A stretch of DNA of 64,000 nucleotides from Parcubacteria group bacterium GW2011_GWC2_48_17 (GCA_001003605.1 LCPL01000001.1:7976-71975), one strand, 5' to 3'; counted from the first letter of the stretch, positions 18,639 through 37,893 are shown. Notes: a model not told the origin generated them from the letters alone. Program-made: numbers and translations.

Positions 18639-18971
18639 ATATGAAAAGGAGGTCTCAGAAAATCAAGATGATTTTCATTGATCCTCCTCCGCCGAAAACG
18701 GAAGACGAAAGAAGGGACAGAGAGCGGAGGATTGAGCAGGCTTTTGACATCTTATTTAATGTTGTACTTAGGAGATATCCCAAATCTCAGAGTCGCTTCG
18801 GTAAATCCTCAGACTAGGGCTAGAAGCTGTCGTACATGAGTAAGGACCATCGCAGGATCTGCTACTGCCTTCTTCCAGTCATAGGTTCGGAACGCGTCCC
18901 GCCAAGCGAGCCAGTTAGTATGAAGCCCAAAATTTGAAAATCCGGTTTTCATGATACAATTGAATTTCATT

Positions 18972-19112
18972 TAGGACTTACGCACTTTATCATCTTTCGG
19001 TGTCATTCCACTGAAAAAGGGAATCCATGTTATGCAGTATAGCTCTGGATTCCCGCCTCTGCGGGAATGATGAGGAGAAAATGCGAGAGCAAGCTAAAGT
19101 GCGTAAGTCCTA
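18972..19112. mobile_element. MITE-like element, copy A, with perfect 18-nt terminal inverted repeats TAGGACTTACGCACTTTA
   Basis: taggacttacgcacttta at 18972-18989 and its exact reverse complement at 19095-19112. The interior carries the widespread gtcattcc...gcgggaat palindromic-repeat core. Confidence 0.55.
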
Positions 19113-19139
19113 TCATTATTACTTACATATTAAAGAACT

Positions 19140-19325
19140 ATGAAAACTCTTAAATGCGACCTGTGCGAAATAACGGCGGAAGGTGAGACATTTGAAGCAT
19201 GGATGAAAGCCCTTCATCCTCATTACAATGAGGTTCATGTTGAAGTAATGAAAAACTCTAGTCATACAAAGGAAGACATGGAGAAGTGGATGGCTGAAAA
19301 TAAGGCAAGGTTTGATGCTGCCTAA
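19140..19325 (+). CDS. Small DUF1059-like protein (tentative)
   Basis: MKTLKCDLCEITAEGETFEAWMKALHPHYNEVH resembles the ~60-aa DUF1059 pattern (MK.F.C.D.G..C.....ETEEE....EH....HG). Confidence 0.3.
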   Translation: MKTLKCDLCEITAEGETFEAWMKALHPHYNEVHVEVMKNSSHTKEDMEKWMAENKARFDAA

Positions 19326-19501
19326 AACATACGCAAAAAACATTCGTAAAAAAAGCCAGCTATGTGTGCTTTTTTACAAATCCTAATTCCCAACTTTTTT
19401 CCTATTCTAGTCCAGTTCAAAGTCCTGAACCTGTCCCACAAGTTGGAGCAAAGCAATCATGAAAAAGCCCCCATTGTTGGGGCTTTTCTGTTGCGCAAGA
19501 G

Positions 19502-20503
19502 TTAATTGGCCAGTGTCATCGCCTGAAACTGACCTGTCCTTCTCACATTACCTGACGCGTCCCTCGACTCAATAATAAGGTAATAGGTGGTACTCGTTCC
19601 TAGGCCACTAAGGTCCAGTCTGTGGTCTTTTTCCAAAGTCAATTTTTCCGTGAAAGGCGTTGTAGAGGCGTTTGCATCTAGTGGGGTTGATGTGCCAAAC
19701 AGCAGTTTGCTTGTGGAAAATTCATTGGTATGCCAACCGACACTGATGGTGGTCGTACCGACTAGTGTACTTACGCTACTTATAATTGGGGCAAGAGCGT
19801 CCGTCAGAATGCTCTTTGTCGTAAAGGAGAATTCGGAAGAAGTGGCAGTGTTTCCCGATGCATCCACAGTGCTAATGAGCGCGTAATAAGTCGTGGAGGC
19901 AGTCAGGCCGAAGATGTCAGTATGATGATTCCGAGAAAAACCAGAACCGGACAAGACCTGTATTGACCCAGCCGTGATGTTTATAGGCGTGGTGGTGCTG
20001 TAATATAGAGTGCCTCTGGTTTTTTCATTCGTCTCCCATTTTACTTCCGCTCTGACTATCTTTGGATTGGTGGAGATGTTGCTTATGGCTGGCGCCACGG
20101 TATCAATCTGTGGAGGGGTGGTTGTAGCTCTATTATCGGGGAACTTCTTCCAGATGCCAAATGGCCAGAAGCACACTCTGTCCGCCAGTTCTTGAAGTCG
20201 TTCCTTGTTGCCAGTGCGGCTCATGCGAATTAGAAGACCAAATGACCTAAAACACTCCTTCTCCATTCGGCCATTCCTTCGAATGAGCGTCTGCTCTTTA
20301 GCTTTTTCCCTTTTCTCGTGTTCCTCCTCATTGTCCCACGCATCATCCATGAGTTTCCGCTGTTGTTCCACTGCCTCTTTCTGCTGTACACTTTTTCCGT
20401 TATTCCCCTTGTCCTGCTTTGCGTATGTAAGCGTAGGGGAAAGCGTGAAGGTCGCAACAAGCATCGAGGCGGCAACGACTCTGCTCAATCTTTTTGTTTT
20501 CAT
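19502..20503 (-). CDS. Secreted protein with two fibronectin type III-like domains
   Basis: Signal peptide MKTKRLSRVVAASMLVATFTLSPTLTYA. Two repeats follow with the pattern W.TNE.T.G.L.Y......L.GL...TTYY..I.S.DASGN. Confidence 0.5.
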   Translation of the reverse strand: MKTKRLSRVVAASMLVATFTLSPTLTYAKQDKGNNGKSVQQKEAVEQQRKLMDDAWDNEEEHEKREKAKEQTLIRRNGRMEKECFRSFGLLIRMSRTGNKERLQELADRVCFWPFGIWKKFPDNRATTTPPQIDTVAPAISNISTNPKIVRAEVKWETNEKTRGTLYYSTTTPINITAGSIQVLSGSGFSRNHHTDIFGLTASTTYYALISTVDASGNTATSSEFSFTTKSILTDALAPIISSVSTLVGTTTISVGWHTNEFSTSKLLFGTSTPLDANASTTPFTEKLTLEKDHRLDLSGLGTSTTYYLIIESRDASGNVRRTGQFQAMTLAN

Positions 20504-20721
20504 AAAAGTATGTTTGGTGATAATTAGTAATGCTTACACCAATCGGGAAGCGATGCTCTCCTTCGCATGGGTCCCATGCTTCAAAAAGACGCTTCGGTAC
20601 AGCATCTCTTACACCACGAATCAATCAGACAATAAGATTTCATTTCTGCAATGGACGCTGCAGGTAAGAGAAGACGAGTTTGTGATACCCTGTAAGAATT
20701 GAGGCACGCACTCGTCTCTCT

Positions 20722-21243
20722 ATGAAGGAACGAAACGAACACGCACAATTCGAGAGAATTTATCAGGATACTGCCGACATGCTGTTTCGGTTTTGTTTTG
20801 TAAAGGTCTCTGACAGGGAGGTCGCGTTGGACCTCACGCAAGAGGCCTTTACGCGATTGTATGAGACGATGCAGATTGGCAAAGTGATAGACCACCCTAG
20901 AGCCTGGCTTTTTAAAATCTCTAGGAATCTAGTTATTGACTGGTATAGGAAGAAAAAGCCGATTTCCCTTGAGCAGATGATGGAGCAAGGCGGAGAAGCG
21001 ATTGAGCCAGCAGATAAAGATGGTCGAGAGCATATAGAACTTTCCTCCGAAGCAAAGTTGGTCATCAAAGCATTTGAAAAGCTTGGCGAGGAGTTTCGGG
21101 AGGTTTTGTACTTACGATACGTGGAAGATTTGGAACCGAAAGAGATAGCTCGTATGCTAGGCCTTACGGCGAATCTCGTTTCGGTAAGAATCAGCAGAGG
21201 TATGGAGGAACTTCGAAAGATAATGAGAAGCAGCGATAACTAA
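20722..21243 (+). CDS. ECF-subfamily RNA polymerase sigma factor (sigma-70 regions 2 and 4)
   Basis: Region 2: DLTQEAFTRLYE...AWLFKISRNLVIDWYRKK. Region 4: EVLYLRYVEDLEPKEIARMLGLTANLVSVRISRGMEELRK. Confidence 0.8.
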   Translation: MKERNEHAQFERIYQDTADMLFRFCFVKVSDREVALDLTQEAFTRLYETMQIGKVIDHPRAWLFKISRNLVIDWYRKKKPISLEQMMEQGGEAIEPADKDGREHIELSSEAKLVIKAFEKLGEEFREVLYLRYVEDLEPKEIARMLGLTANLVSVRISRGMEELRKIMRSSDN

Positions 21244-21258
21244 TAAAAATCTGTCACC

Positions 21259-22314
21259 ATGGACAATGATATCTTTAAAAAAGCTCTCGACGAAATAAAA
21301 GGCATCCGTCTCTCAAGAGACGAGAAATCTTTTATCTTGGAAAGAGTTCTCCACGAAGGAATAAAGAGCCCATACTGGAGCCCATATTCAATCATTATGC
21401 GGGTGCGGGAGAACAAACTGTACGCTCTCTCCTTTGCAATTATTCTCCTTGTGTCGGGAGGAGGATCGGTGGTCTTGGCGGCCGAGCGTTCCGTTCCCGG
21501 TGATATTCTGTACCCGATAAAGGTGAAGATTACCGAGCCCGCTCTCGACAAGCTCTATGTTACCGCCGAAGAAAATGCTAGGTGGCAGGGCGAAAAGACT
21601 GCACGGCGACTTCGAGAGGCCGAGACGTTGGCCATTCAAGGCAAACTCGATGAGGAAAAATCTAGGGTAATCGAAGAAAAGATAAAGGAACATACCGAGG
21701 AATTTCGCGCGGTGATACAGGACATTTCAACCACGACCGAATCCGAGACGAGAGAGAGCGTTGAGGTGGAATATGAGTCGAAGGTCAAAGCTCACTCGAT
21801 GATTTTAAGCAAGATCAAGGAGAATAATGAAGAAGAAGCAAAACCGACCATTCAACATGTTGAGAACACCTTGAGCACCGAACTTCAAAGGAATGAGACG
21901 AGGAAAGAAGAGCGAGTGCGGGAGAAGAAAGAAAAGGAAAGGGAGGAGACGCCCGAGGAAGTGACGAAAGTGGACCTGGACCAAAGACTTCTGGATGCCG
22001 AAAAGTCGATTGAGGCCACCGTCGAGAATATTAAAAAAGGAGAAATGAATCTTCGCGACTTCCATGAGGACTTGAGCAAGATGATACTCGAGGAGTCTGA
22101 CAAAATTATGCAGGAAACTCGGAGTAGGATTCGTGAGGCGCGAGAAACCAGAGACAAGGGAAATGCCGACGAGGCAAAAACCATCTCCGATATTGAAGAC
22201 TCAAATCAAAAAGTATTTGAAACGAACACGATGCTCCATGAGATGAAAAAGATAGACAGACCTGCAAGGAAAGAAAAAGCCTCAAAGGAAAAAAGAGAAG
22301 AGAGGAGGCCGTGA
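21259..22314 (+). CDS. Putative anti-sigma factor / DUF5667-like membrane protein with a long E/K-rich coiled-coil tail
   Basis: Immediately downstream of the ECF sigma gene. One TM (YALSFAIILLVSGGGSVVLAA) is followed by PGDILYPIKVKITE. Confidence 0.45.
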   Translation: MDNDIFKKALDEIKGIRLSRDEKSFILERVLHEGIKSPYWSPYSIIMRVRENKLYALSFAIILLVSGGGSVVLAAERSVPGDILYPIKVKITEPALDKLYVTAEENARWQGEKTARRLREAETLAIQGKLDEEKSRVIEEKIKEHTEEFRAVIQDISTTTESETRESVEVEYESKVKAHSMILSKIKENNEEEAKPTIQHVENTLSTELQRNETRKEERVREKKEKEREETPEEVTKVDLDQRLLDAEKSIEATVENIKKGEMNLRDFHEDLSKMILEESDKIMQETRSRIREARETRDKGNADEAKTISDIEDSNQKVFETNTMLHEMKKIDRPARKEKASKEKREERRP

Positions 22315-22351
22315 GAAAGAACCGTCAGAACCGCCCCGTAGCGGGGCAAGA

Positions 22352-22385
22352 TCCCCATCAGCCCATTATTTAGCATTTGCTCACG
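22352..22385. repeat. Perfect 16+16 palindrome TAGCATTTGCTCACGG|CCGTGAGCAAATGCTA (family copy 1). Likely a bidirectional terminator or REP-like element between convergent genes.
   Basis: Exact inverted repeat in the sequence. The same TAGCA..CTCACGGCCGTGAG..TGCTA architecture recurs at ~42827, ~49172 and ~49812. Confidence 0.5.
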
Positions 22386-22407
22386 GCCGTGAGCAAATGC
22401 TAAATCT

Positions 22408-22767
22408 TCACTGGGAAACATACTCCCATTTGCCGTCAAGATAATTAGCAACACACTCGCCACTATAGGGCACACCTTCGGCATCATATCTAATCTTGTG
22501 AATAGAGGCAGAGAATTGCGCGCCGGGAGGGAGTGCCTTATTTCTGTAATCATAAGTGGCTTTTTGGTAGTTGTATTCCAGTTTTTCTCCGTTTTCCAAA
22601 AGAACTTCGATTTCATACAGAGAAACTTCCGTCTCGTTGCTCACTATCCGCAACTCCCGATAGTTCTGACCTTGCAGAATAGTCTCAAAGACACGCGTTA
22701 TCTCCTCCTTCGAGGGAAATTGTTCGGAGGTTTCGCAGGGTCTCAAAAATTTATCTTCTAGACTCAT
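22408..22767 (-). CDS. Hypothetical protein
   Basis: 119-aa ORF with plausible composition. Preferred over the overlapping low-complexity ORF 22206..22616. Confidence 0.35.
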   Translation of the reverse strand: MSLEDKFLRPCETSEQFPSKEEITRVFETILQGQNYRELRIVSNETEVSLYEIEVLLENGEKLEYNYQKATYDYRNKALPPGAQFSASIHKIRYDAEGVPYSGECVANYLDGKWEYVSQ

Positions 22768-22839
22768 ACGGACAATTATACCAGAAGATTCTCTTCAACC
22801 ATTTCGAGAGGATCGAATGGTGATGCTATACTGAAGCGA

Positions 22840-23922
22840 ATGCTGAAACGGGCCAAATCATTTATCGAGCGAAATGAGCGTCGGCTCTCTATACTCGCGT
22901 TTTCACTCGGCTTTCTTTGGGACAGCCTCACCTTAACTTCCGTTGACGGCCTGTTCGACAACATCGTTCTACTGTCCTATATTGTCGTCGCCTTCGCGAG
23001 CATAATGCTCTTAAACGCGCCCGGCGCGCGAAATTTCCAAAGCTCGCTCGCGAGGCGCGGAGTAAATCTCGCGGAGTTCCTTCTGCCGTTCTCGTTTGGA
23101 GGGCTCTTCAGCGGGTTCCTAATTTTTTATTCAAGGAGCGGCCCCTTACTTTCAAGCGCGCCGTTTTTGCTTTTTATTCTGCTTCTATTCTTGGGTAATG
23201 AATTCTTTAGACGGCATTATGAGCGGTTCATTTTTCAGATGAGCGTATTTTTTGTGGCACTCTTCTCGTATGTAGCTCTCATCATACCCGTTCTCCTAGG
23301 ACGCATGGGGGATATGATATTTCTCCTCAGCGGGGTGGTAACGCTGTTTCTCTTTTGGTGCGCTCTTAAGATTCTCTCGCTCATCTCGCGCGAGGAAATA
23401 CGCAAAAGTAAGTTCTCACTTTTGGCGATTGTGATAAGTATCTTCGTTACATTCAACTTTCTGTATTGGAGCAACATGATTCCGCCCATTCCGCTTTCCC
23501 TAAAGGAAATTGGAATCTATCATAACGTGGAGCGGACGCGAAGCGGCGAGTACCGCTTAACTTTCGAAAAAGCGCCATGGTATGCGTTTGGACAAAAAAC
23601 AAGCGCGGTCTTTCATAGACAAGGTAGCATGCCGATATACGCCTTTAGCTCGGTGTTCGCGCCAACGCGGCTTCTCACGGAGGTCGCGCATCGTTGGGCC
23701 TATTTCGATGATCAAAAAGACAGATGGATTGACTCGACCGTGGTCGGCTTTCCAATCTCCGGAGGGCGCGAGAACGGTTTTCGAGGATACTCGAAGAAGG
23801 AGACAATTTCCCCCGGGAAGTGGCGCGTAGATGTTGAAACGCTCCGCGGACAGACCATCGGTCGGTTTGTCTTTGAGGTTATAGGGGTATCTCCTCCGCC
23901 GCTTAAGGAAGAAACTCGATAA
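22840..23922 (+). CDS. Hypothetical polytopic membrane protein with a C-terminal soluble domain
   Basis: About 7 hydrophobic helices, then a ~130-aa hydrophilic C-terminal domain. Confidence 0.45.
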   Translation: MLKRAKSFIERNERRLSILAFSLGFLWDSLTLTSVDGLFDNIVLLSYIVVAFASIMLLNAPGARNFQSSLARRGVNLAEFLLPFSFGGLFSGFLIFYSRSGPLLSSAPFLLFILLLFLGNEFFRRHYERFIFQMSVFFVALFSYVALIIPVLLGRMGDMIFLLSGVVTLFLFWCALKILSLISREEIRKSKFSLLAIVISIFVTFNFLYWSNMIPPIPLSLKEIGIYHNVERTRSGEYRLTFEKAPWYAFGQKTSAVFHRQGSMPIYAFSSVFAPTRLLTEVAHRWAYFDDQKDRWIDSTVVGFPISGGRENGFRGYSKKETISPGKWRVDVETLRGQTIGRFVFEVIGVSPPPLKEETR

Positions 23923-24497
23923 CCCGTGACTCTTGCGTTCCTTATATTTTTTAGGTATACTTTTTACCGGTTCGTCAAATCGTCAATCCAGCCAAACCCA
24001 CAAGAAAAAAAATGATAAGCAATAACGGCGTTTGTCCCAACTGCCAAAGAAGGCCCCTCAACGGCCTCAAGTGCGTGTACTGCAAGTATCAATCGAACGC
24101 TTCGCCTGTAATGAGCGTCATAGCCCATCGGTTTCAACAAGAACTGCAGGAACATAGGCGTCGGGCGGCGCGCGCCAAAATGCTTCCCTGGAACTAATCA
24201 GGAGAATCCTCATTGTACTTTGTAAGGCGTCGCGAGTGATGCGACGCCTTCTATTTTAGTGTATACTCTTATTTATTATAAAGCTTTAGGTGTCATCTTA
24301 TGAATAAGAAAGAAAAACAAGCCCGCAAAAAACAGCGTAAAAAACACGGCAAGAAGATATCGGTGCGTCATCGCTAAATCAGCTTGTTAGCTTTTTAGCA
24401 GGTTAGCTTGTTAGTTCTTTTATTCAGTTTGCTGTCGCATTACCTGTCGCTTTTTCCTTCTACTTTTTCTACTAACTACCTTCTACTTACTGTTTTC

Positions 24498-25157
24498 ATG
24501 ATTATTACCCATTTTGGCGGAGAATTTATCAAAGTGCAATTTGGCGACGTGGTGTTCGCGTTCAATCCGCCTTCCCGCGACTCGAAACTAAAAACCGCGC
24601 GTTTTGGAGCCGATATCGCACTCATAAGCGCGAACCACCCGGATTTTAACGGGGTAGACATCGTGACTCACGGCGACCATAGACCGTTTGTCATTTCCGG
24701 TCCCGGAGAGTATGAAATAAGAGGCATCGTTGTTCGAGGTTTTGCCACCGAGTCCGATTACGGAACGGATGGGAAGAGTAAGCGCATAAACACCGTCTAC
24801 ACGGTAGCGCTTGAGGGAATGAAGCTCTGTTTCCTCGGAGCGCTTTCCTCCGGCGAACTTCCCGACGTCTTGAAGGAAGAGCTGGATGAGATAGATATTT
24901 TGTTCATCCCAATCGGCTCTATCGGCGTTCTATCTCCTTCTTCGGCAAACAAGCTCGCGGTTGCCCTCGAGCCGCGTCTTGTCATTCCAATCCATTTTGC
25001 TGGCATTGGGGATAAGAACGCACTCAAACAGTTTTTAAAAGAATCCGGTGAGGAGAATTCGTCATCTTCCGGACGAGCGTTGGACAAGCTGACGCTCAAG
25101 AAGAAGGACCTTGAAGGGAAAGAAGGCGAAGTCGTAGTACTAGCTGCTAGCTTCTAG
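24498..25157 (+). CDS. MBL-fold metallo-hydrolase (UPF0173-like)
   Basis: MIITHFGGEFIKVQFGDVVFAFNPP...DIALISANHPDF...IPIH resembles small MBL-fold hydrolases. The start was moved to Met 24498 because the upstream part of the ORF is repeat-derived. Confidence 0.45.
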   Translation: MIITHFGGEFIKVQFGDVVFAFNPPSRDSKLKTARFGADIALISANHPDFNGVDIVTHGDHRPFVISGPGEYEIRGIVVRGFATESDYGTDGKSKRINTVYTVALEGMKLCFLGALSSGELPDVLKEELDEIDILFIPIGSIGVLSPSSANKLAVALEPRLVIPIHFAGIGDKNALKQFLKESGEENSSSSGRALDKLTLKKKDLEGKEGEVVVLAASF

Positions 25158-25228
25158 CTGTCAGGTTCTAGTATGGCGGATGAGGTCCTTCCTAGAAGCT
25201 AAAACCTAAAACCTAAAACCTAGAACCT

Positions 25229-25549
25229 ATGCTGTTTCTTATCTCCAAATTACAGCGGAAGCCGGAACGCGTTCGCAAAAAAATCGCGTTCGTCGCATCT
25301 GCGATTATAACAGGCATCATAGTAATTATCTGGCTCACTTCTTTAAGTGTCGCTACTCCCGAAACCTCTTCCAAATCCGCTTTGAGCGGAGATGACGTCG
25401 GTCCATTTCAGGCACTTACCGAAAACTTAAGCGTGTTCTTTTTAGACGCGTCCGAAACAATCCAAACGGCGGTAAGCGCCTTTTCCGGGGCCTCAGACAA
25501 AGCTGCGCCGCCTCAAGAAAAAGAGGTTGCCCCGCCTGTCACGCAGTAA
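25229..25549 (+). CDS. Small hypothetical membrane protein (1 TM)
   Basis: 106-aa ORF with one TM (ASAIITGIIVIIWLTSLSV). Preceded by an (AAAACCT)x3 repeat. Confidence 0.35.
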   Translation: MLFLISKLQRKPERVRKKIAFVASAIITGIIVIIWLTSLSVATPETSSKSALSGDDVGPFQALTENLSVFFLDASETIQTAVSAFSGASDKAAPPQEKEVAPPVTQ

Positions 25550-25555
25550 CAAATC

Positions 25556-25598
25556 CCGAGCATCTGATTCTCGTAATTTACGAGAATCAGATGCTCGG
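25556..25598 (+). other. Perfect 21-bp-arm stem-loop directly upstream of gyrA
   Basis: ccgagcatctgattctcgtaa t ttacgagaatcagatgctcgg. No T-run follows it; GGAGGAGGTG follows instead. Confidence 0.5.
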
Positions 25599-25676
25599 AG
25601 GAGGTGGCGCAAGCTCAAAATATATAGTAATATAATTCAATAATATGACGGGAGATTAAAGCCTGTTTCTAACGGG

Positions 25677-28127
25677 ATGCCAAACACTGAACCAAAAACA
25701 CCTCGATTGACTGGAATTATAGCCAGGAGCATTACGACCGAGATGAAAGAATCGTACCTTGACTACGCGATGTCGGTTATTACTGCGCGCGCCCTTCCTG
25801 ACGCAAGGGACGGACTGAAACCGGTGCATCGCCGCATACTTTTCTCCATGCATGAAATGGGTCTTACCGCTTCCGCGAAGACCAGAAAATCCGCCACCGT
25901 GGTCGGTGACGTACTGGGGAAGTATCACCCACACGGCGATATCTCGGTATATGACGCGATGGTGAAAATGGCGCAGACATTTTCATTTCGCTATCCCCTC
26001 GTCATCGGCCAAGGCAATATGGGGAGCCTCGACGGCGACCCGCCGGCCGCGTACCGCTATACCGAAGCAAAAATGTCTCGGCTTTCCAGTGAAATGCTTC
26101 GTGACATTGAGAAAGACACGGTTGACCTTCGTCCAAATTTTGACGGCACACGCAAAGAACCGGTTGTCCTTCCAGCAGCAGTCCCGAATCTTTTGCTCAA
26201 CGGAACACTCGGCATCGCCGTCGGTATGGCGACCAACATACCACCGCACAACCTTCGCGAGGTTTTGTCGGCGACAATATACCTTATAGAAAATGAAGAC
26301 GCCACGACCGAAGACCTCCTAAAATTCGTGCATGGTCCGGATTTTCCGACTGGAGGCGTTGTGTTCGGTTCGAAAGATTTGCAGCACGCATACTCGACCG
26401 GAAAAGGAGGCGTCATGGTTCGAGGTGTCGCCGAGATAATAGAACAAAAAAGCGGCCAATTTCAAATCATCATCACTTCTATTCCATACCGTGTGAACAA
26501 GGCGGAGATGATTGTCAAAATTGCAGATCTCGTCCGAGAAAAAAAGATAGATGGCATAAAAGGCCTTCGCGACGAATCCACAAAAGACGTGCGGATAGTG
26601 ATAGACCTAAAGCAAGGAAGTTTTCCAGAGAAGGTTCTAAACTTCCTCTACAAACATACCCAGCTAGAGGAAACCTTCCATTTTAATACCGTAGCGCTCA
26701 TAAGAGGCGTTCCGCAAACGCTTTCCCTCAAGGCCTTGCTTTCCGAATTCATATTTCACAGAAAGGAGGTGGTGAAGAGAAGGAGTCTTTACGACCTTGC
26801 GCGCGCTAGGGAGCGGGAGCATATCCTTCTCGGACTTAAAAAAGCTCTTGACCATATTGATGAAATCATTAAGCTCATCAAGAAGTCAAAAGACGTTGAC
26901 GAAGCGCGCTCTTCTCTTATGAGAGCTTTCAGATTTTCCGAGCTTCAAGCGCAGGCCATTCTTGATATGCGCCTTCAGAAGCTTTCCGGACTCGAGAGAA
27001 AGAAGATTGATGACGAACTTCATGTCGTGAAGGATCTTATCGAGGAGCTAGAGTCAATTTTGGGTAGTCCGAAGAAGATTCTTTCGGTCATCAAAAAGGA
27101 GCTCGAGGAAATAAGCGAGAAATATGGAGATGAACGCAGAACGCGCGTCGTGAAGCATGGAGTCAAGGAGTTTTCCGAAGAAGACCTCATTCCGGATGAG
27201 GACGCGGTGCTCCTCCTCACCAAGGGGGGATACATCAAACGCACCGACCCTGAGGAATACCGCAAACAGCGCCGCGGAGGCGTGGGCGTCGTAGACCTCG
27301 ACACCAAAGATGAAGATTTCGTAACGCACGTAATCACGGGGACTACGCACAATGACATCCTTTTATTTACCGATAAGGGCAAGGCATTTCAGATAAAGAT
27401 GTATGAAATTCCGGAAGGGAGACGCGCTACCAAGGGAAAGTCCGTCATGAATTTTCTCCCGCTCGCCGCGGACGAAAAAGTAACCTCCATCCTTCCCATG
27501 CCGAAAGAAGTGAAATCTACCAAACTTTCTCTATTTATGATGACCAAGAACGGTGTTGGCAAGAAAACGGCAGCGGCGAGTTTCCATGATGTGCGTCGTA
27601 GCGGCCTCGTTGCCATTAAATTAAAGTTTGGTGACGAGCTTGTGTCCGCGTCATTCGTCGAAAAAGGCGATGAAGCTATACTCGTTACAGGAAAAGGCCA
27701 ATCTATAAGGTTTAAGGAAAGCGATATCCGCGAAATGGGTCGTGGTGCTTCTGGAGTAAGAGCAATGCGCCTTAGAAAAGGGGATTCAATTGTTGGTACA
27801 GGTATTATTTCCAGGAAAATGGAGCATCCAGAACTTCTGGTCATTATGAAGAACGGTTACGGCAAGAAAACCAAGCTCAAGGAATACAAAACGCAAAAAC
27901 GAGGCGGGTCAGGCGTTAAAACCGCCAAGATTACCTCAAAAACAGGCGAACTTATCGCGGCGCACATCGTAACGTCTCCTGAAGAGGAAGTCGTGGCCAT
28001 CTCAAGGAAAAGCCAGGTTATTCGAACTGGCGTGAGTGAGATTGCGAGTTTGGGAAGACAGACGCAGGGAGTACGGATTATGAAACTCCGGGAGGGGGAC
28101 AGTATTGCGTCATTGACGTGTCTTTGA
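25677..28127 (+). CDS. gyrA: DNA gyrase subunit A
   Basis: [27 protein letters not shown] active-site region. The C-terminal repeats carry the GyrA-box-like QRRGGVG. Confidence 0.9.
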
Positions 28128-28181
28128 AATTAAGGAGCAAAGCGACTATAATTTCTTAGACCCCGTTAAACCTCCTGCAAA

Positions 28182-28448
28182 TTGATGATACAATTCTACT
28201 ACACGTACGTTTTATACTCAGAGTTCGATAAGAAACTATACGTTGGTTGTACACAGAATTTGCAGGAGAGATTTAAGGCGCACTCGAAAGGTGAGGTGCC
28301 TGCTACCAGGAACCGTCGACCGCTAAAGTTACAATATTACGAAGCATGTCATGATTTGAGAGACGCTCGTCATCGTGAACAGTATCTCAAAACAACTCAC
28401 GGCCGCCGGTTTATCAGGCAGCGCCTTAAATCATATTTAACGGGGTGA
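28182..28448 (+). CDS. GIY-YIG nuclease family protein (small, stand-alone)
   Basis: YTYVLYSEFDKKLYVGCTQNLQERFKAH is the GIY...YVG motif pair. Confidence 0.7.
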   Translation: MMIQFYYTYVLYSEFDKKLYVGCTQNLQERFKAHSKGEVPATRNRRPLKLQYYEACHDLRDARHREQYLKTTHGRRFIRQRLKSYLTG

Positions 28449-28502
28449 CGATTTTGTAACATCTCACTTTCGCAGAATCAAGTTCACTTAACAAAATCAG
28501 TC

Positions 28503-29027
28503 ATGTTCTCCGACCCCTCACAATGCATTGAACAATTTGACCTCCAAAGCGGCTCGCGCGTGGCCGACCTTGGCGCGGGCACCGGCGCGTTCGCGATTGC
28601 CGCTGCAAAAGCGGTGGGCGAGGCCGGCAAGATTTACGCCGTAGAAGTACAGAAGGGCCTTTTGGAGCGGCTCAAAAGCGAGGCCCGCGCGGCGCGCGCG
28701 CATAATGTGGAGGCGCTGTGGGGAGACATTGAACGCGTGCAGGGTACACACCTCAAAGACGCCTCCATTGACGCCGCCGTTGCGTCAAATGTGCTGTTTC
28801 AGGTTGAAGATAAAAACGGTTTTGTAACGGAAACGAAACGTATATTAAAACCAGGCGGCAAAGCGCTTCTCATAGACTGGACGGATTCTTGGAATGGTAT
28901 GGGTCCGCACAAGACCCAGGTAGTCACCGAAAACGCCGCTCGCGAGCTTTTTGAAAAGGCCGGCTTTCAGTTCGTAAAGAAAATCGACGCCGGAGAGCAC
29001 CACTATGGGTTAGTATTTAGAAAGTAG
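28503..29027 (+). CDS. Class I SAM-dependent methyltransferase
   Basis: VADLGAGTGAFAI (motif I) ... KPGGKALLIDW (post-I/II). Confidence 0.6.
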   Translation: MFSDPSQCIEQFDLQSGSRVADLGAGTGAFAIAAAKAVGEAGKIYAVEVQKGLLERLKSEARAARAHNVEALWGDIERVQGTHLKDASIDAAVASNVLFQVEDKNGFVTETKRILKPGGKALLIDWTDSWNGMGPHKTQVVTENAARELFEKAGFQFVKKIDAGEHHYGLVFRK

Positions 29028-29050
29028 AGGGTAGGTGGTAGAAAAAGACA

Positions 29051-29401
29051 ATGAAGGAATGGAATTACAAGAATCTTATTGTGTGGCAGAAGGCAATTGA
29101 TGTGGCCGTAAAAGTCTATCGTCTCACTGACACTTTCCCCAAAAACGAACAATACGGACTGATGTCTCAAATTCGCAGAGTAGCGTCCTCAATTTCAGCA
29201 AATATCGCGGAAGGTAGTCGGAGAAAAGGACCGAAAGACAGAGTCCATTTTTTTGTCATGGCGTATGGTTCTGGGGCTGAATTAGAATCCCACTTGGAAT
29301 TAGCTAAGCGTCTTTCGTTAGTATCTGAAGAGTCCCTAAAAGAAATGCCGGCGCTTTTAGACGAGGTGATGAAAATGTTAAACCGTCTCACCAGTGTATA
29401 A
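29051..29401 (+). CDS. Four-helix-bundle protein (23S rRNA intervening-sequence protein family, the same family as DGR Avd), copy 1
   Basis: KNLIVWQKAIDVAVKVYRLTDTFPKNEQYGLMSQIRRVASSISANIAEG...GSGAELESHLELAKRL is the canonical family signature. Confidence 0.75.
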   Translation: MKEWNYKNLIVWQKAIDVAVKVYRLTDTFPKNEQYGLMSQIRRVASSISANIAEGSRRKGPKDRVHFFVMAYGSGAELESHLELAKRLSLVSEESLKEMPALLDEVMKMLNRLTSV

Positions 29402-29476
29402 TTTTTAACCTGCTTGGGTTATACTTGAGTCGTTTCTCTTGCTACCTTCTACCCTCTACTTTCTACCTTCTAAACC

Positions 29477-30736
29477 ATGAATTCCTTCCAAATCATCGTC
29501 CTCGGTATCTTCGCCTTCTTCATTGTCGCCGGACTCGCGGCAATATCCCTCGTCAAGCAAAACGCCGGAGCGGAAGTCATATCGCTCACGATGTGGGGAA
29601 GCGTTGATAAAGACTTGGTTGAGAGTATCATCGGTAGCACCGTAAACAGCGAAACGCTCAAGGTTTCCTACAGGGAGATTCCGGAATGGTCGCTTGATAA
29701 AGAGATTGTAGAGGCGCTTGCGGTGCGTCGCGGTCCCGATATGCTTCTCCTGCCGCTTCCGCTTCTCACTCGCTACAAAGACAAACTGTTAGTAATCCCA
29801 TACAGCACTTATCCGGAACGCACATTCAAGGACACATTTATGCAGGAAGGAGACCTTTTCTTATCAAAGAATGGCATAATCGCTTTCCCTTTTTTACTTG
29901 ACCCGATGGTCATGTATTTCAATCGGGATTTGCTTGATGAAGTGAAAAAGCCCCAGGCGCCGAGATTTTGGGATGAATTTATCTCGCTCGCAAGGGACCT
30001 TACTTTGCGCGATGAGTATGGCAATATCTCGCGCAGCGCCGTCGCACTGGGCGAATATCGGAATATAAACCACGCGCGCGAGATTCTGGCGACGCTTTTT
30101 ATGCAGAGCGGAAACCCCATCGTCGCCAAAGGAGATTCCGTAAATAAGGTTACGCTGGACAAAAGTGGCACCTCTCCAGTGCTAGATTTTTACACTGAAT
30201 TCGCGAATCCGCAGAAACCCGTATATTCTTGGAATCGCTCGCTTCCGAGCGCGAGAAGCGCGTTTCTAGCCGCGAACCTAGCAATATACTTCGGTTTTGG
30301 GAGCGAATATGATGGACTGCGCAAAGGGAATCCCAATCTTGATTTTGATATCGCGCCATTTCCGAGGCCCCGAGACGCGAGTATCGCCATCACCTATGGC
30401 AAGCTCACTGGAGTGTCAATTCTCCGTACGGCTTCCAATACTGGAGTGGCCCTTCAAGTCGCTCTAACGCTCGTTAGTCCGAGGGCTCTAAACATACTTC
30501 GCTCCAAAACCGGGTTCCCGCCAGTTCATAGAGGTCTTCTTACTGCAAAGCCGACGGATGCTTTTGGAGCCGTTATGTACGATTCCGCTTTCATGGCGCG
30601 CGGATTTATTGACCCAAACCCGGCAGTATCCGCGGGAATATTCAGGAACATGATAGAATCGGTTACAAGCGGCAGAGCGCGGAGCAAAGAGGCGCTCCAA
30701 AAGGCGAATACGGAAATGAAAGAAGCGTTCCGGTAG
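29477..30736 (+). CDS. Membrane-anchored extracellular solute-binding protein (ABC-transporter substrate-binding family, tentative)
   Basis: N-terminal TM anchor. MalE-like substrate-binding-protein features (LTMWGS..., DMLLL, ...). Confidence 0.4.
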   Translation: MNSFQIIVLGIFAFFIVAGLAAISLVKQNAGAEVISLTMWGSVDKDLVESIIGSTVNSETLKVSYREIPEWSLDKEIVEALAVRRGPDMLLLPLPLLTRYKDKLLVIPYSTYPERTFKDTFMQEGDLFLSKNGIIAFPFLLDPMVMYFNRDLLDEVKKPQAPRFWDEFISLARDLTLRDEYGNISRSAVALGEYRNINHAREILATLFMQSGNPIVAKGDSVNKVTLDKSGTSPVLDFYTEFANPQKPVYSWNRSLPSARSAFLAANLAIYFGFGSEYDGLRKGNPNLDFDIAPFPRPRDASIAITYGKLTGVSILRTASNTGVALQVALTLVSPRALNILRSKTGFPPVHRGLLTAKPTDAFGAVMYDSAFMARGFIDPNPAVSAGIFRNMIESVTSGRARSKEALQKANTEMKEAFR

Positions 30737-30842
30737 AGACAAATACCAATCTGCAAATGTATACCAATTTTCCAATACCTGCGAATAAGAGTTAAGAATC
30801 CGAATTGGTAGGTATTTGTAGATTGGAATGGATTAGTTATCA

Positions 30843-31415
30843 TTGGTATCTGTCATGTCTCGTTTTTTCCCAATCTCAATACTTTCCACTCTTGTTCTAC
30901 TTGGAACGGTCATCCCGTTCGCTCATGTCGCGAACGCGCAACAACAAACGAACCCGCCAGGCGAAACCAAATACGACGATGCGTATGTCCCGTGCGGGTA
31001 CGCTGATACAAAAGACAAACAAGGGAAACCGGCAGAACAAACAATCACCTTACCCGATGGCACTACAAAAACTATCCCCGGAGACGGCGTCGTAGACAAC
31101 CCCTGCAAATTCACGCACATCATTGAGCTTGCAAAAAAGCTCATCATGGGTTGGATTATCGCCGGTGTTATAATTGCGACTATGGGTTTCGCGTACGCAG
31201 GGCTTCTCTACATTACCGCCATGGGCTCATCGGAGAAAGTGAGCCACGCGCACTCAATTTTCATAAAAACCTTCTGGGGATTCGTGTTCATGCTTTCCGC
31301 GTGGCTTATAGCGTATACTATGGAGAGCATTTTCCTTTCCAAGGAGGCAAAGTGCAATTCGTTTTTGACCACTCCCGAAGATAGAGTAAAATTGGGGTGT
31401 CCAACGACCCCATAA
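30843..31415 (+). CDS. Secreted two-TM pilin-like protein, paralog 1 (TrbC/VirB2-like architecture)
   Basis: Signal peptide. Two hydrophobic helices are separated by a short charged loop (..AMGSSEKVSHAHS..). Shares the core with six downstream paralogs. Confidence 0.45.
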   Translation: MVSVMSRFFPISILSTLVLLGTVIPFAHVANAQQQTNPPGETKYDDAYVPCGYADTKDKQGKPAEQTITLPDGTTKTIPGDGVVDNPCKFTHIIELAKKLIMGWIIAGVIIATMGFAYAGLLYITAMGSSEKVSHAHSIFIKTFWGFVFMLSAWLIAYTMESIFLSKEAKCNSFLTTPEDRVKLGCPTTP

Positions 31416-31420
31416 GAAAT

Positions 31421-31562
31421 CGGGGAGAACATGACACCCAAAGCACAGTGTCCAAAAACCCAAACAAAGCACAGTGTGTCAAAAAAACAAACAAGTCCGG
31501 TTTGTGTTTTGAAAGTTTGTGCAGTTTGTTTGGGCTTTGTGTACTGTGCTTTGGTAAGTTTA
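31421..31562. repeat. Long imperfect palindrome, CA-rich arm / TG-rich arm (~60-nt arms). Second copy at 54775-54915.
   Basis: The left arm cccaaagcacagtgtccaaaaacccaaacaaagcacagtg... is almost G-free. The right arm ...cagtttgtttgggctttgtgtactgtgctttgg is its approximate reverse complement. Copy 2 shares caaagcacagtacacaaag...ccggtttg.... Confidence 0.5.
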
Positions 31563-31584
31563 AAACAGGTAATTAAGCCAACTT

Positions 31585-32007
31585 ATGTCTTTCATTGAAA
31601 AAGTGTGCCATTCGTTTAGCAAAGTACCACAAATGGCAGTGCATCTGGGCTGGGGCGCTTTTCTCATGCTCTTTCTCACGCCGCAATCAGCCTTTGCGAC
31701 ACCATGTCCCGAAGGAAGACTCTGCAATCCCATCAACTTTCCCAATCTTACCGCGTTCCTGCTTGAAATTGTAAATATAGCAATCCAGTACGGCGCGCTC
31801 CTTATCGTATTTTTCATCGTCTTCGCCGGTTTTAAATTCGTTACGGCGCAAGGGAACAGCGAGAAGGTGAGTGAGGCGAGAAAAATGTTTACGTGGATTG
31901 TTGTCGGCGCCTTCGTGCTTCTTGGCGTCTATGTGATTAAGGCCGCCATCTGCGGCTCCATAGAACAGCTTGGGGTCACGAACGCGTGCGGATTGACTTC
32001 GCAATGA
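31585..32007 (+). CDS. Secreted two-TM pilin-like protein, paralog 2
   Basis: ...ALLIVFFIVFAGFKFVTAQGNSEKVSEARKMFTWIVVGAFVLLGVYVI... is the same helix / charged-loop / helix core. Confidence 0.45.
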   Translation: MSFIEKVCHSFSKVPQMAVHLGWGAFLMLFLTPQSAFATPCPEGRLCNPINFPNLTAFLLEIVNIAIQYGALLIVFFIVFAGFKFVTAQGNSEKVSEARKMFTWIVVGAFVLLGVYVIKAAICGSIEQLGVTNACGLTSQ

Positions 32008-32026
32008 AAGCAGTACTTAGTAGTTA

Positions 32027-32182
32027 GTAGTAGAGGACTTACGCGGTTGACTGAATTCTCCCTTAATAAAGGGAGCACTGCCGCCTTCGGCAGGAGGGAT
32101 GTTACAACCCCCGCCTCGCCGACTCGGCACCCCCTTTACTAAGGGGGACACACTTCGACCGGATTCCAAACGCGTAAGTCCT
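32027..32182. mobile_element. MITE-like element, copy B (TIR AGGACTTACGCG), with a hairpin-rich interior
   Basis: aggacttacgcg at 32027 and cgcgtaagtcct at 32171-32182. The interior has ctcccttaataaagggag and cccccctttactaaggggg stem-loops, and is related to 37640-37870. Confidence 0.5.
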
Positions 32183-32209
32183 AAGTAGTAGATTAATAGA
32201 CAAAGCAAA

Positions 32210-32593
32210 TTGATGAAAACTATAAGCCACAAAACAAATAGATTTTCTTTGCTACCCTCTACCTTCTACCTTCTACCATCTGCTTTCTTCTACCTTCTAC
32301 CTTCTGTTTCCCTTGCCAACGACTCCATCAAAATCTTTGATACTCCCAATAAGCTCACGTTCACAGACCTCGCGGGGCGGCTTGCAGGCGTTGGGAATAC
32401 AATCATAACCTTTCTCGTCGGCGTTGCTCTCGTTCTTTTGATTTGGGGCGCTTTCAAGTACATCCGTGCCGCCGGCGACTCGGAAAAGCTTGCCGAGGGA
32501 CGTCGAGTGGCCGTCTATGGCATCATTGCCTTGTTTCTAATGCTTTCTTTCTGGGGATTTGTTATGATTATCAAGAAGAGCTTGTTCGGGTAA
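32210..32593 (+). CDS. Secreted two-TM pilin-like protein, paralog 3. Its N-terminal hydrophobic region is encoded by CTACCTTC repeats.
   Basis: ...TFLVGVALVLLIWGAFKYIRAAGDSEKLAEGRRVAVYGIIALFLMLSFWGFVMII. There is no in-frame alternative start downstream of the repeat region. Confidence 0.45.
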   Translation: MMKTISHKTNRFSLLPSTFYLLPSAFFYLLPSVSLANDSIKIFDTPNKLTFTDLAGRLAGVGNTIITFLVGVALVLLIWGAFKYIRAAGDSEKLAEGRRVAVYGIIALFLMLSFWGFVMIIKKSLFG

Positions 32594-32659
32594 TACCAAT
32601 CTGCGAATGTGAACCAATCTACGAATACCTGCTAATAAAACCTACTAATAAACACGCCA

Positions 32660-33130
32660 ATGGCTAGACAAATTTTCTCAATGCTCCTCATAACGCTGAT
32701 GTTGCTGTCTGGAATGATGATGTTTGCGACTCCCACGTTCGCGATATTGTGCGCCTACACGGACGGCGGCACGGTTGAGGTACCTGGGACAGTGTGTCCT
32801 GATGGAAGCACACCTGTTGGCGATCCATCTGGTGACGGCGGCAGTCAAATAACCACCTTCGCTGGTTTGCTAAAACACATCAACGCACTTCTCAACCTCG
32901 TTGTTCCGTTCCTCGTGGGTCTGGCTGTTTTTGTTATAATCTACGGAGTCTTCAAGTACGTTTTCCACGCGGCAGATGAGGAGAAGCGGACGGAAGCAAG
33001 ACTCTTCATCGTCTGGGGAGTAATCGGCGTCTTCTTCATGCTCTCCATTTGGGGGCTCGTGAATATCCTTGTCAACACCGTTCCTCTGCAAAAAAAGCCG
33101 CCGAAGGTGGAGTCGGTGTTTCCTAAGTAA
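32660..33130 (+). CDS. Secreted two-TM pilin-like protein, paralog 4
   Basis: Signal peptide and a Cys-containing N-domain. Core: ITTFAGLL...VPFLVGLAVFVIIYGVFKYVFHAADEEKRTEARLFIVWGVIGVFFMLSIWGLVNIL. Confidence 0.5.
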   Translation: MARQIFSMLLITLMLLSGMMMFATPTFAILCAYTDGGTVEVPGTVCPDGSTPVGDPSGDGGSQITTFAGLLKHINALLNLVVPFLVGLAVFVIIYGVFKYVFHAADEEKRTEARLFIVWGVIGVFFMLSIWGLVNILVNTVPLQKKPPKVESVFPK

Positions 33131-33178
33131 ATACCAATATACGAATGGGAACCAATCTACGAATACCTGCGAATAAGA

Positions 33179-33312
33179 TAGGACTTACGCATTTCGTCAT
33201 TTTCTGTCATTCCCGCGCAGGCGGGAATCCATGCCTTGAAATAACACTCTGGATTCCCGTTCCCCGCCTTCGCGAGGACAAGCTTCACGGGAATGACACC
33301 AAATACGACTTT
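33179..33312. mobile_element. MITE-like element, copy C (left TIR TAGGACTTACGC, degenerate right end)
   Basis: taggacttacgcattt at 33179. The interior has gtcattcccgcgcaggcgggaatcc and ctggattcccg cores homologous to copy A. The ORF-track ORF 33145..33339 is the translation of this repeat. Confidence 0.45.
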
Positions 33313-33335
33313 TTAGAAGCTAATTTCTTAACCTC

Positions 33336-33905
33336 ATGAAGAAAACATACGCGTTTGCGGCAATCTTTGTGTTACTTTTCGTTCTGTCCGCTTCTTTACT
33401 GCCCGGTATTACATTTGCGAACCATGTGTGTATCGGCGATCCTAATTGGGACGAGGACAATGATTTTGCCGAAGGCCATGCTTGTGTCCCGGCCAGCAAT
33501 AGCGGCGGTGGCGGCAAAATAACCACCTTTGAAGGTTTGCTCGGCAAACTAAGTTCGGCCGTCAACTCGCTCGTGCCGTTCATAATAGGACTCGCGGTTT
33601 TTGTCATTATCTGGGGGATTTTTAACTACATCGTGCGTGCCGCAGATGAGGAGAAACGGGCGGATGCGAAAAAGTACATTATCTGGGGAATCGTTGGGTT
33701 GTTTTTTATGCTCTCCATCTGGGGCTTCGTGAACATCCTCTTAAACAGCATCAACCTTGATAGGACCATCAAGACAAGCGATATTCCAAGAGTTCCAAGC
33801 ATTGGCGGGATAGACGGGACAGATGGCGGCACCCCCAGCGGACGGGACAATGGAAGAGATGGCACAGATGACTGTGATCCATCTATTAAGGATTGTCAGC
33901 AATAA
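33336..33905 (+). CDS. Secreted two-TM pilin-like protein, paralog 5, with a G/D-rich C-terminal tail
   Basis: KITTFEGLLGKLSSAVNSLVPFIIGLAVFVIIWGIFNYIVRAADEEKRADAKKYIIWGIVGLFFMLSIWGFVNILLNSINL, then GGIDGTDGGTPSGRDNGRDGTDDCDPS. Confidence 0.5.
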   Translation: MKKTYAFAAIFVLLFVLSASLLPGITFANHVCIGDPNWDEDNDFAEGHACVPASNSGGGGKITTFEGLLGKLSSAVNSLVPFIIGLAVFVIIWGIFNYIVRAADEEKRADAKKYIIWGIVGLFFMLSIWGFVNILLNSINLDRTIKTSDIPRVPSIGGIDGTDGGTPSGRDNGRDGTDDCDPSIKDCQQ

Positions 33906-33924
33906 TTATGAGTGTACCGCCACT

Positions 33925-34281
33925 ATGTTGTTTAGCATAGGAAAGAAAAACACAGCTCTCATTTGGTACGGCCTTCTTTATTTTTTTCTCGCGCCACTCA
34001 CTTTGTTCGCGCAGTCTACTGACCTGCCGAAAGACGCAACCGAGCTCCTCAACCGCATAAGCACATTCATCATAAACCCCATCATCTATCTCCTTTTCGC
34101 CGCCGCGTTTGTAATTTTCGTTTGGGGACTCGTGCAATTCGTGGCGCATCTTGACAACGAAGAGGCGAGAAGCACGGGGGGTAAGCACATGATTTGGGGC
34201 ATCATCGGCATGGTCATCATGGTCAGCGTCAACGGAATAATCTACATAATCCAAAACACCATTCTTCAGCTGGGAAGCTGA
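33925..34281 (+). CDS. Two-TM pilin-like protein, paralog 6 (divergent)
   Basis: Start moved to Met 33925 (the 33823 start overlaps paralog 5). ...IIYLLFAAAFVIFVWGLVQFVAHLDNEEARSTGGKHMIWGIIGMVIMVSVNGIIYII. Confidence 0.4.
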   Translation: MLFSIGKKNTALIWYGLLYFFLAPLTLFAQSTDLPKDATELLNRISTFIINPIIYLLFAAAFVIFVWGLVQFVAHLDNEEARSTGGKHMIWGIIGMVIMVSVNGIIYIIQNTILQLGS

Positions 34282-35025: not shown

Positions 35026-35394
35026 ATGACTATCACAAAATCCTACAAAGACCTGATTGTGTGGCAAAAAGGAGTTGAACTTTCCGTGCTTGTATATGAA
35101 CTGACTGAAAAGTTTCCCAATGAAGAGAGATATGCGCTTACTTCACAAATGAGACGAGCTGCCGTTTCCATTCCATCAAATATAGCCGAAGGGCGTTGTA
35201 GAAGTACAAAAAAGGATTTTTGCCAGTTTCTGCATATTGCCCTCGGTTCTGCGGCAGAGCTTGAAACACAAATAGAAATTGCAAAGCGAATATCAAAGAC
35301 CTCCAATATCTCATATACAACCATAGAAGCCCTGCTTACCGAAGTTATGAAAATGCTCAATGCTCTTATCTCCAAACTAGAAGCCAATGCCTGA
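35026..35394 (+). CDS. Four-helix-bundle protein (IVS/Avd family), copy 2
   Basis: KDLIVWQKGVELSVLVYELTEKFPNEERYALTSQMRRAAVSIPSNIAEG...LGSAAELETQIEIAKRI. Confidence 0.75.
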   Translation: MTITKSYKDLIVWQKGVELSVLVYELTEKFPNEERYALTSQMRRAAVSIPSNIAEGRCRSTKKDFCQFLHIALGSAAELETQIEIAKRISKTSNISYTTIEALLTEVMKMLNALISKLEANA

Positions 35395-37535: not shown

Positions 37536-37893
37536 GCAGTCGAATAGGTTTTGAGTGTTTCGATTGGCTGGTTTTTACCAGCAGAGGACTTTTCTCTGTT
37601 TCGACTCTACCACGGCATCACAATCGCGTCCAACATTAAAGGGTAATCACCGATACTCCCATCTTCTTCCGGAATTCTCCCTTACCAAAGGGAGTACCGA
37701 ATTCTGATTCGGGGAGGGTTGTTGCGGGTAAGCTATTTGTTAAGGGGGAAACAACCCCCGCTCCGAAGACGGAGCATCCCTTCACTAAGGGAAAGACAAC
37801 CCCCACCTCGCAGACTCGGCACCCCCTTTGTTTCCGCCAAAGGACGGATCCGCCTCTGGAGGAAAGGGGGATTGGAGAGTGTGAGAATTGACT

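Follow-up and report, generated by a model that had tools for sequence, protein, structure and literature searches.

Three short hairpin-forming elements, copies A, B and C, are present in a 64,000-nt stretch of DNA from Parcubacteria group bacterium GW2011_GWC2_48_17 (LCPL01000001.1:7976-71975; this whole stretch is called the window). With a probability of about 0.85 they are MITEs (miniature transposable elements with inverted repeats), i.e. non-autonomous elements, of the ISAba11/ISPlag1 group within the IS701 family of insertion sequences (ISs). The copies have in common with this group a terminus of ~13 bp, Y-AGGACTTACGC-R. The window GyrA is named 'Candidatus Taylorbacteria bacterium' in the sources, and the sequence of the window is also found in DOPE01000037.1 (a groundwater metagenome-assembled genome, MAG) and LCOL01000015.1 (GCA_000999035.1). 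Loci compared in the analysis are given L-numbers (L001, L126 etc.).

The three copies and their ends

Four exact matches to the 12-mer TAGGACTTACGC were found in the window, at 18972(+), 19101-19112(-), 32172-32183(-) and 33179(+), against ~0.008 expected (own arithmetic; 128 kb, both strands). A version with one mismatch, GAGGACTTACGC, was found at 32033(+). The boundaries drawn from these ends are listed in Table 1.

Copy A, between an NYN-domain gene and a 61-codon open reading frame (ORF), carries terminal inverted repeats (TIRs) that are perfect over 18 of 18 nt (TAGGACTTACGCACTTTA) and were also recovered by blastn self-comparison. It is bracketed by a perfect 5-bp TCATT duplication. 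The TIR core of copy B is perfect over 12 of 12 nt and matches at 16 of 17 positions when extended. AGTAG is present on both of its sides, at 32029-32033 (before AGGAC) and 32184-32188 (after GTCCTA), and can be counted as a 5-bp duplication only on the premise that the left end lacks its terminal Y (1-nt offset).

Copy C is of the 144/167-bp type and keeps an intact 13-nt left TIR. It was aligned base for base with nine canonical 144-bp copies from the left TIR to ...gggaatgacacc, i.e. until the last 16 nt. Where those nine read GATTGCGTAAGTCCTA followed by the duplication, copy C has AAATACGACTTTTTAG and lacks the TAAGA that would be expected. Family homology stops at ~33300-33308, and the right terminus AAATACGACTTTTTA matches the canonical ATTGCGTAAGTCCTA at ~9 of 17 positions, with no target duplication after it. 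Because the right-terminal sequence diverges and TAAGA is absent, copy C is one-ended.

No transposase ORF is contained in any of the three (A 141 bp, B ~150 bp, C ~138 bp), and TIRs stand at both ends of A and B and at the left end of C. Folded as single-stranded DNA, each copy forms a long hairpin, with -32.3 kcal/mol (z -6.45 against shuffles) for copy A, -41.9 kcal/mol (z -7.86) for copy B and z -4.9 for copy C. Comparison of copies A, B and C and of the 37.6-kb hairpin region with Rfam, at gathering and at permissive (E<10) thresholds, gave chance-level matches only. When 110 elements (104 family copies and six from L128 and L129) were used as queries, no further copy was found in the 64-kb window besides A, B and C; sensitive blastn gave a weak match at 37673. 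The protein of the 64-codon ORF over copy C forms a 90%-identity cluster of that sequence alone, named 'hypothetical protein' in the sources, and the ORF is for the most part read-through of copy C and probably no gene.

Most of what an earlier sequence-only reading of the window had proposed for the copies was borne out. Copy A, given there as 18972-19112 with perfect 18-nt TIRs, was confirmed at both ends with TCATT on each side, and the ORF taken for a translation of copy C does lie mostly inside it. For copy B the 12-nt TIRs held and the start at 32027 did not, being 6 nt too far left (the element spans 32033/32034-32183). For copy C the clear left TIR stood, and the right end described as decayed is effectively lost.

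Table 1. Positions of the elements and associated features in the window
Feature	Position	Strand	Remarks
TSD (target-site duplication) of copy A, left	18967-18971	no strand	TCATT, read directly; abuts terminal T of TIR, per family rule
MITE copy A	18972-19112	no strand	141 bp; structurally intact; TIRs 18972-18989 and 19095-19112
Hairpin units in copy A	19002-19029 and, inverted, 19045-19072		NTS/SRM-like
TSD of copy A, right	19113-19117	no strand	TCATT, read directly
MITE copy B	32033-32183	no strand	150-151 bp; TIR core AGGACTTACGCG at 32034-32045 and 32171-32182
ORF, 64 codons	33145-33339	+	138/195 nt within copy C
MITE copy C	33179-33316	no strand	~138 bp, one-ended; left TIR 33179-33191
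Hairpin unit in copy C	33205-33232		SRM/NTS-like
Inverted hairpin unit in copy C	33249-33298		enlarged loop
Degenerate right terminus of copy C	33301-33316
Hairpin-rich intergenic stretch	37672-37817 (dense to 37890)	no strand	homologous to B interior; not TIR-bounded; downstream of PKD-domain gene

Terminus, target duplication and movement of the family

A full-text literature search with a 10-mer of the TIR led to ISPlag1, a 1306-bp IS701-group element of Planktothrix with the TIR CAGGACTTACGCAAGCACGCTATATATAG (Christiansen et al., 2008; PMC2464740). ISPlag1 was recovered from a Planktothrix plasmid (L126 2502-3807, exactly 1306 bp) with the ends CAGGACTTACGCA, and its 337-aa ORF scored 408 bits on NCBIfam NF049921 'IS701 family transposase'. 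Its transposase was then compared with plasmids by tblastn, and the ends of four relatives were inspected. Three of these, a Nodularia IS (L131; transposase 65% identical to that of ISPlag1), an A. baumannii IS (47%) and ISAba11 (L134; 31%, with CTTTA on both sides), have the ends TAGGACTTACGCA; the ends of a Piscirickettsia relative (35%) have diverged (CACGACTTTCGCAC). ISPlag1, the Nodularia IS, the A. baumannii IS and ISAba11 all terminate in Y-AGGACTTACGCA. As transposases only 31-65% identical to that of ISPlag1 go with the same ends, the 13-bp terminus is a conserved feature of the ISAba11/ISPlag1 group. Transposition of ISAba11 in A. baumannii was shown experimentally (PMC9771954).

The window copies have the identical 12-13-bp termini, the 5-bp duplication (CTTTA in ISAba11) and the AT-rich targets of this group. 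They differ from its members in having no transposase gene, in length (140-150 bp against 1.1-1.4 kb), in a subterminal sequence unrelated to any of the four ISs examined, and in host (a Patescibacterium here, Cyanobacteria or Acinetobacter there). An IS630-like assignment, with a TA duplication and a TIR starting from GGAC, was ruled out, as the positions preceding AGGAC (T or C) and following GTCCT (A or G) vary independently; the matching repeat is moreover a 5-mer outside those bases.

Genomes were searched with the pattern AGGACTTACGC-N100-130-GCGTAAGTCCT. TIR pairs at this spacing of 100-130 nt were found at at least 119 genome loci against ~2 by chance (own estimate). By record title, among the matches listed, ~75 loci are from Cyanobacteria and 19 from Poribacteria; the other hosts are Legionellales, Thiotrichaceae, Chloroflexota, Bacteroidota, Acidobacteriota, Burkholderiales and one Patescibacterium. 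Interiors are very diverse across this superfamily. Throughout it, T or C adjoins AGGAC on the outside, and A or G adjoins GTCCT. Metagenomes were searched with the pattern TAGGACTTACGC-N5-25-GTCATTCC, in which the TIR is joined to part of the hairpin unit of copies A and C. This subfamily was found on at least 120 contigs, many from the groundwater sample holding this organism (Ga0209542 prefix, as in L004) and some labelled 'Hain'. On these contigs 104 elements have both ends, their modal lengths being 122, 132, 144 and 167 bp, and one contig is identical to a contig of a binned Patescibacteria MAG (L084 = L208). Perfect 5-bp direct repeats abut the ends of 79/119 genome elements and 73/103 metagenome elements (~70%), and these duplications are 82% A+T. 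For copy A, 44 related interiors were found in metagenome loci, the closest being 79% identical over the whole interior (L149); the copy B type is rare, with one full relative and fragments. Viral contigs gave zero matches to the TIR pair and to the composite pattern, hence nothing that points to carriage by phages.

In related Taylorbacteria, copies occupy other sites. Two of these relatives (L128 and L129, GyrA 83-84% identical) keep the gene order downstream of gyrA without B and C, and have copies at 21764-21924 (L128; flanks ATAGG/ATAGA) and from 9473 (L129). At a place that is free of copies in the window, between the DUF2914 and lactamase genes, the syntenic relative L169 has one of 167 bp. 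In L175 (also syntenic) and L141 a copy lies in the spacer equivalent to window 45089-45340, which is empty in the window; a base-level empty-site junction was sought there against the filled L175, and the flanking genes aligned while the spacer was too diverged. In L183 (1075-1520) and L142 (574-1000) a 167-bp MITE with TTCTG flanks splits a GIY-YIG ORF, whose reading frame was restored by in-silico removal of the element together with one TTCTG. Another relative (L232), with flanking genes 72-84% identical to those of the window, has a B-type copy at 4211-4362 in the equivalent pilin spacer. Its interior is 92% identical to that of B; it is inverted, lies 6 bp from the position of B and has its own AGATT duplication, and is for these reasons an independent insertion. 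Two insertions of a rare B-type element 6 bp apart in opposite orientations suggest a local insertion hot spot. From the different sites in different Taylorbacteria species, and from the 73/103 perfect duplications, activity after species divergence follows. Such presence/absence differences between related genomes were seen for the family, and none among strains for A, B and C themselves.

The sequence-only reading had asked for additional copies, for target-site duplications and for autonomous elements with matching TIRs. All were found: the copies at at least 119 genome loci and 120 metagenome contigs, the duplications in ~70% of copies (TCATT for copy A), and the autonomous elements, in other phyla, in ISPlag1, the Nodularia IS, the A. 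baumannii IS and ISAba11. The MITE reading was to be given up had there been no more copies and no such element; neither was the case.

Movement would proceed as follows. A DDE-type transposase of the group would bind the ~13-bp terminus at both ends and insert the segment into an AT-rich target after a staggered cut of 5 bp, giving the 5-bp duplication. Because the elements encode nothing, the enzyme must come from elsewhere. Copy A has all that movement requires; copy B is nearly intact, with its left terminal base missing or changed; copy C, its right end lost, is fixed in place. The interiors are interchangeable, with an inverted NTS/dRS3-like doublet in A and C and other modules, resembling repetitive extragenic palindromes (REPs), in B.

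Hairpin cargo and genomic neighbourhood

The cores of copies A and C, noted earlier as gtcattcc...gggaat units with a widespread palindromic core, are inverted pairs of GTCATTCC-loop-GGAATCCAG units. They resemble the NTS/dRS3 repeats of Neisseria (Ssn-related motifs, SRMs) and are indeed a separate, widespread element that also occurs without TIRs. The copy C unit TGTCATTCCCGCGCAGGCGGGAATCCAT differs from the Neisseria NTS consensus CGTCATTCCCGCGMAVGCGGGAATCYRG at 2 of 28 positions. The published SRM expression, HGTCWYN(0-2)YYVSBRHN(0-5)WNVSBRGN(0-2)RNCYNB (PMC11893778), matched this unit, with two matches in the window in total against 0.3 in shuffles; both units of copy A and the right unit of copy C failed the strict expression, their loop length being wrong. 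Doublets without TIRs or flanking duplications were found in L128 (19030-19125, 19897-19960 and 21329-21450), L129 (21631-21905) and L205 (4843-4925). Among 120 TIR-bounded MITEs from other phyla none carries an SRM; the cargo is hence peculiar to the groundwater subfamily.

SsnA is a 94-aa single-domain GIY-YIG protein that cuts NTS hairpins in single-stranded DNA and lowers transformation; it is a nuclease without known integration activity (PMC11893778). The ssnA locus of N. gonorrhoeae is surrounded by six exact NTS copies. In L205 (4430-4935) a 94-aa ORF is 60.7% identical to the product of that locus, and lies between a stand-alone doublet and a remnant of a MITE that still bears a TIR, a layout like the NTS-ssn-NTS arrangement described for Neisseria. 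Its protein is deposited under Candidatus Taylorbacteria (OHA15464.1). The window has a single-domain GIY-YIG ORF of 87 aa (28185-28448) between gyrA and a methyltransferase gene, 4.8 kb from copy C. Its identity is 39% to a Taylorbacteria SsnA homologue and 29% to the product of the N. gonorrhoeae ssnA locus, and its C-terminus differs. It is missing at the equivalent position in a strain with near-identical gyrA (L257) and in the related species L128, L129 and L130, and its protein had no match in plasmids at E<=1e-4. This ORF is possibly a mobile gene of the Ssn-like kind.

The interior of copy B was correctly described earlier as different and hairpin-dense. It is a mosaic of other hairpin modules, contains no SRM and is unrelated to the interiors of A and C. 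It was matched to the stretch at 37672-37817 by local alignment (score 68 against 25 +/- 4.5 in shuffles) and by blastn. The modules of 37672-37890, e.g. ACAACCCCCGCC-hairpin-CACCCCCTTT...AAGGGGG, recur alone in other groundwater contigs, and modules of the B interior stand alone in L156, L220 and L232. The stretch 37672-37817 is a stand-alone relative of the B cargo.

The neighbourhood is typical of Patescibacteria, with an array of PF18895 type IV secretion system (T4SS) pilin paralogues (30843-34281) and 23S_rRNA_IVP genes. Copies B and C lie in spacers of this co-directional array, as the sequence-only reading had it. Two of the three MITE copies thus fall in ~6% of the window (naive chance ~0.01, post hoc). 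A stand-alone hairpin unit was seen at 16342 within the pilin array of L128, and the NTS repeats of Neisseria likewise cluster near surface-protein genes. No promoter- or terminator-like site was found in the pilin spacers at 31500-33500. The two paralogous 23S_rRNA_IVP (bAvd-like four-helix-bundle) genes are at 29051-29401, upstream of the main pilin array, and at 35026-35394, directly before the last pilin gene; similar places are occupied in relatives.

In other assemblies of the species (L001, L002, L256 and L257) copies A, B and C were found at identical places wherever contigs cover the sites. The near-identical strains L256 and L257 both have copy A and differ ~150 bp upstream of it. 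Upstream of that point (2220 in L256, equivalent to window ~18819) L256 has thymidylate kinase and pyrophosphatase genes, wholly different from the window, and the contigs of two other assemblies (L002 and L257) start ~90 nt ahead of copy A. Window ~18819, next to copy A, is a breakpoint of rearrangement or recombination.

Two further features of the window were recorded. LOOT RNA (RF03000) at 7940-8064 is the only Rfam family in it (80.2 bits against a gathering threshold of 46.4). Close GyrA homologues (L169 7545-8732; P0014, P0016 and P0020) are in several cases ~1210 aa long with an intein domain (PF14890); the window gyrA has no intein.

Transposase, alternative explanations and significance

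The mobilising transposase was searched for by tblastn of five IS701-group transposases against the window and all genome-scan and metagenome loci. Their sole matches were their source loci. A profile of the five gave 120 listed matches in a protein collection, all at least 62% identical to ISPlag1 and every organism-named one cyanobacterial. Long TIR pairs at the genome-scan loci were inspected as possible autonomous elements, and each pair bracketed host genes between two separate MITEs. A 1.18-kb unit bounded by MITE termini (L233 5746-6925) encodes a 316-aa ORF scoring 262 bits on NF048019, a zinc-binding variant of the IS256 family. It consists of a complete C-type MITE body with an insert directly before the right TIR, AGAAAT on both sides of the insert, and a transposase ORF that reads through into the right TIR. 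By the position of the insert and its own AGAAAT flanks it is a nested IS256-family insertion, and it was rejected as the missing autonomous element; only one copy of this type was seen. Direct repeats of 16 bp, GATGGAATGACAATGG, enclose the unit as a whole in place of the usual 5 bp. The earlier claim of a common transposase acting in trans is supported by the matching autonomous ISs and by the diverse interiors across the superfamily. For this genome it can only be inferred, because the matching transposase was found in other phyla and none in the Candidate Phyla Radiation (CPR) sequence searched. The enzyme acting in the lineage, past or present, would be one of this group, and the copies may affect the neighbouring pilin genes.

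Four points weigh against assignment of the copies to mobile MITEs of this group. Neither the window, nor the relatives, nor 0.94 Mb of genome-scan loci, nor 0.86 Mb of metagenome contigs with MITEs yielded an IS701-like transposase. No empty site for A, B or C was seen among the assemblies of this species, because all of them have the copies at identical places. The duplication of copy B needs a 1-nt adjustment amid AGT-repeat sequence, and could for these reasons be due to chance. The copies of ISPlag1 (L126) and of the Nodularia IS (L131) that were examined have no clean duplication. It is possible, if somewhat unlikely, that the elements are inactive relics, derived from a past IS701-type IS or from transferred copies, whose transposase is gone and which are now hairpin-forming intergenic DNA. 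The missing transposase, the fixation of A, B and C in all strains, the one-ended copy C and the mutated TIRs in copies of several relatives (L128, L129 and L232) are in keeping with such decay; the perfect TIRs and duplication of copy A, and the activity after species divergence set out above, argue against it. It concerns present activity only and is compatible with MITE identity. That another transposase moves the elements in CPR bacteria, for instance the IS256-family variant found within one copy, has little likelihood. The bounding of the L233 unit by MITE termini would fit such an agent; its structure is the picture of a nested IS and not of a parent element, it was seen once, and the termini and 5-bp duplications match IS701-group elements. 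IS256 duplications are 8-9 bp.

Dispersal by the GIY-YIG/Ssn system, with the hairpin doublets as the active parts and the TAGGACTTACGC ends as incidental flanks, is very unlikely. The NTS/SRM-like cores of A and C, the canonical SsnA homologue between such doublets in L205, the presence of the window GIY-YIG ORF in some strains and its absence from others, and the doublets without TIRs would all be expected under it. Copy B has TIRs and a flanking repeat without an SRM, however, and the SRM-free elements of other phyla show the same 5-bp duplication. The stand-alone doublets lack a flanking duplication, and integration is not a known activity of SsnA (PMC11893778). It is most improbable that the copies are strand-specific structured RNA genes, or leaders or terminators of pilin genes, with the 'TIRs' as a closing stem. 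Their strong folds, and the place of B and C between co-directional pilin genes, could be read in this way. They are countered by the lack of any Rfam match even at E<10, by the lack of promoter- or terminator-like sites in 31500-33500, by the unrelated interiors of A/C and B and by ends that are those of DNA transposons; an element was moreover found in both orientations in the equivalent spacer of two relatives, and within an ORF.

As MITEs of the ISAba11/ISPlag1 group, the copies are a known kind of element in a new host lineage and with new cargo; to our knowledge, MITEs of this group had not been described in this lineage. The Nezha MITE of Anabaena and Nostoc (Zhou et al., 2008, as summarised in PMC3184786) is ~130-170 bp long, shares TIRs with ISNpu3, and has flanking direct repeats and a stable hairpin; the elements described here are similar in size, IS-shared TIRs, direct repeats and hairpin, as far as that description goes. 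In many Nostocales elements the first 20 nt (AGGACTTACGCAACTGGCA) are those of the Nodularia IS of L131; the interiors of cyanobacterial MITEs have no SRM hairpins, unlike those of A and C. The Neisseria NTS/dRS3 repeats are, like the units found here, hairpins with an oriented GTC head. Unlike them and the NIME (neisserial intergenic mosaic element) mosaics, the present hairpins are inverted doublets packaged between transposon ends. REPINs (REP doublets forming hairpins) also consist of two short inverted palindromes with a spacer between, form a long hairpin like the A/C core, and occur in many copies, alone and in mosaics; they lack the DDE-transposon TIRs and the 5-bp duplication that bound the window copies. 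No Y1 transposase was seen among the annotated window ORFs, which are part of the ORFs, and no search was aimed at RAYT. Correia elements of Neisseria are likewise intergenic MITEs of ~100-160 bp, often co-transcribed with neighbouring genes, with a TA duplication, a different TIR and no sequence relationship to the elements described here.

For annotation of the genome, a spurious 64-codon gene is removed and three hairpin-rich spacers are explained. Acinetobacter, Cyanobacteria and Patescibacteria have a conserved 13-bp transposon terminus in common, and transposon activity is documented in small CPR-type genomes. The finding also joins two separate literatures, on IS701-group MITEs and on the NTS/Ssn system that limits natural transformation; the paper on the latter makes no mention of MITEs or TIRs (PMC11893778). 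It is conceivable, though speculative and on balance improbable, that Ssn-recognised hairpins were multiplied and scattered as cargo of IS701-type MITEs in Taylorbacteria and other groundwater Patescibacteria, so that transposition sets the cut sites of transforming DNA, e.g. around variable pilin arrays. This would be a concrete answer to the expansion of NTS-like repeats, which the Ssn paper left open. If the link is not functional, the hairpins would be ordinary repeat DNA; if it is, the set of loci that resist recombination would be shaped by the spread of MITEs, in organisms presumed to rely on DNA uptake.

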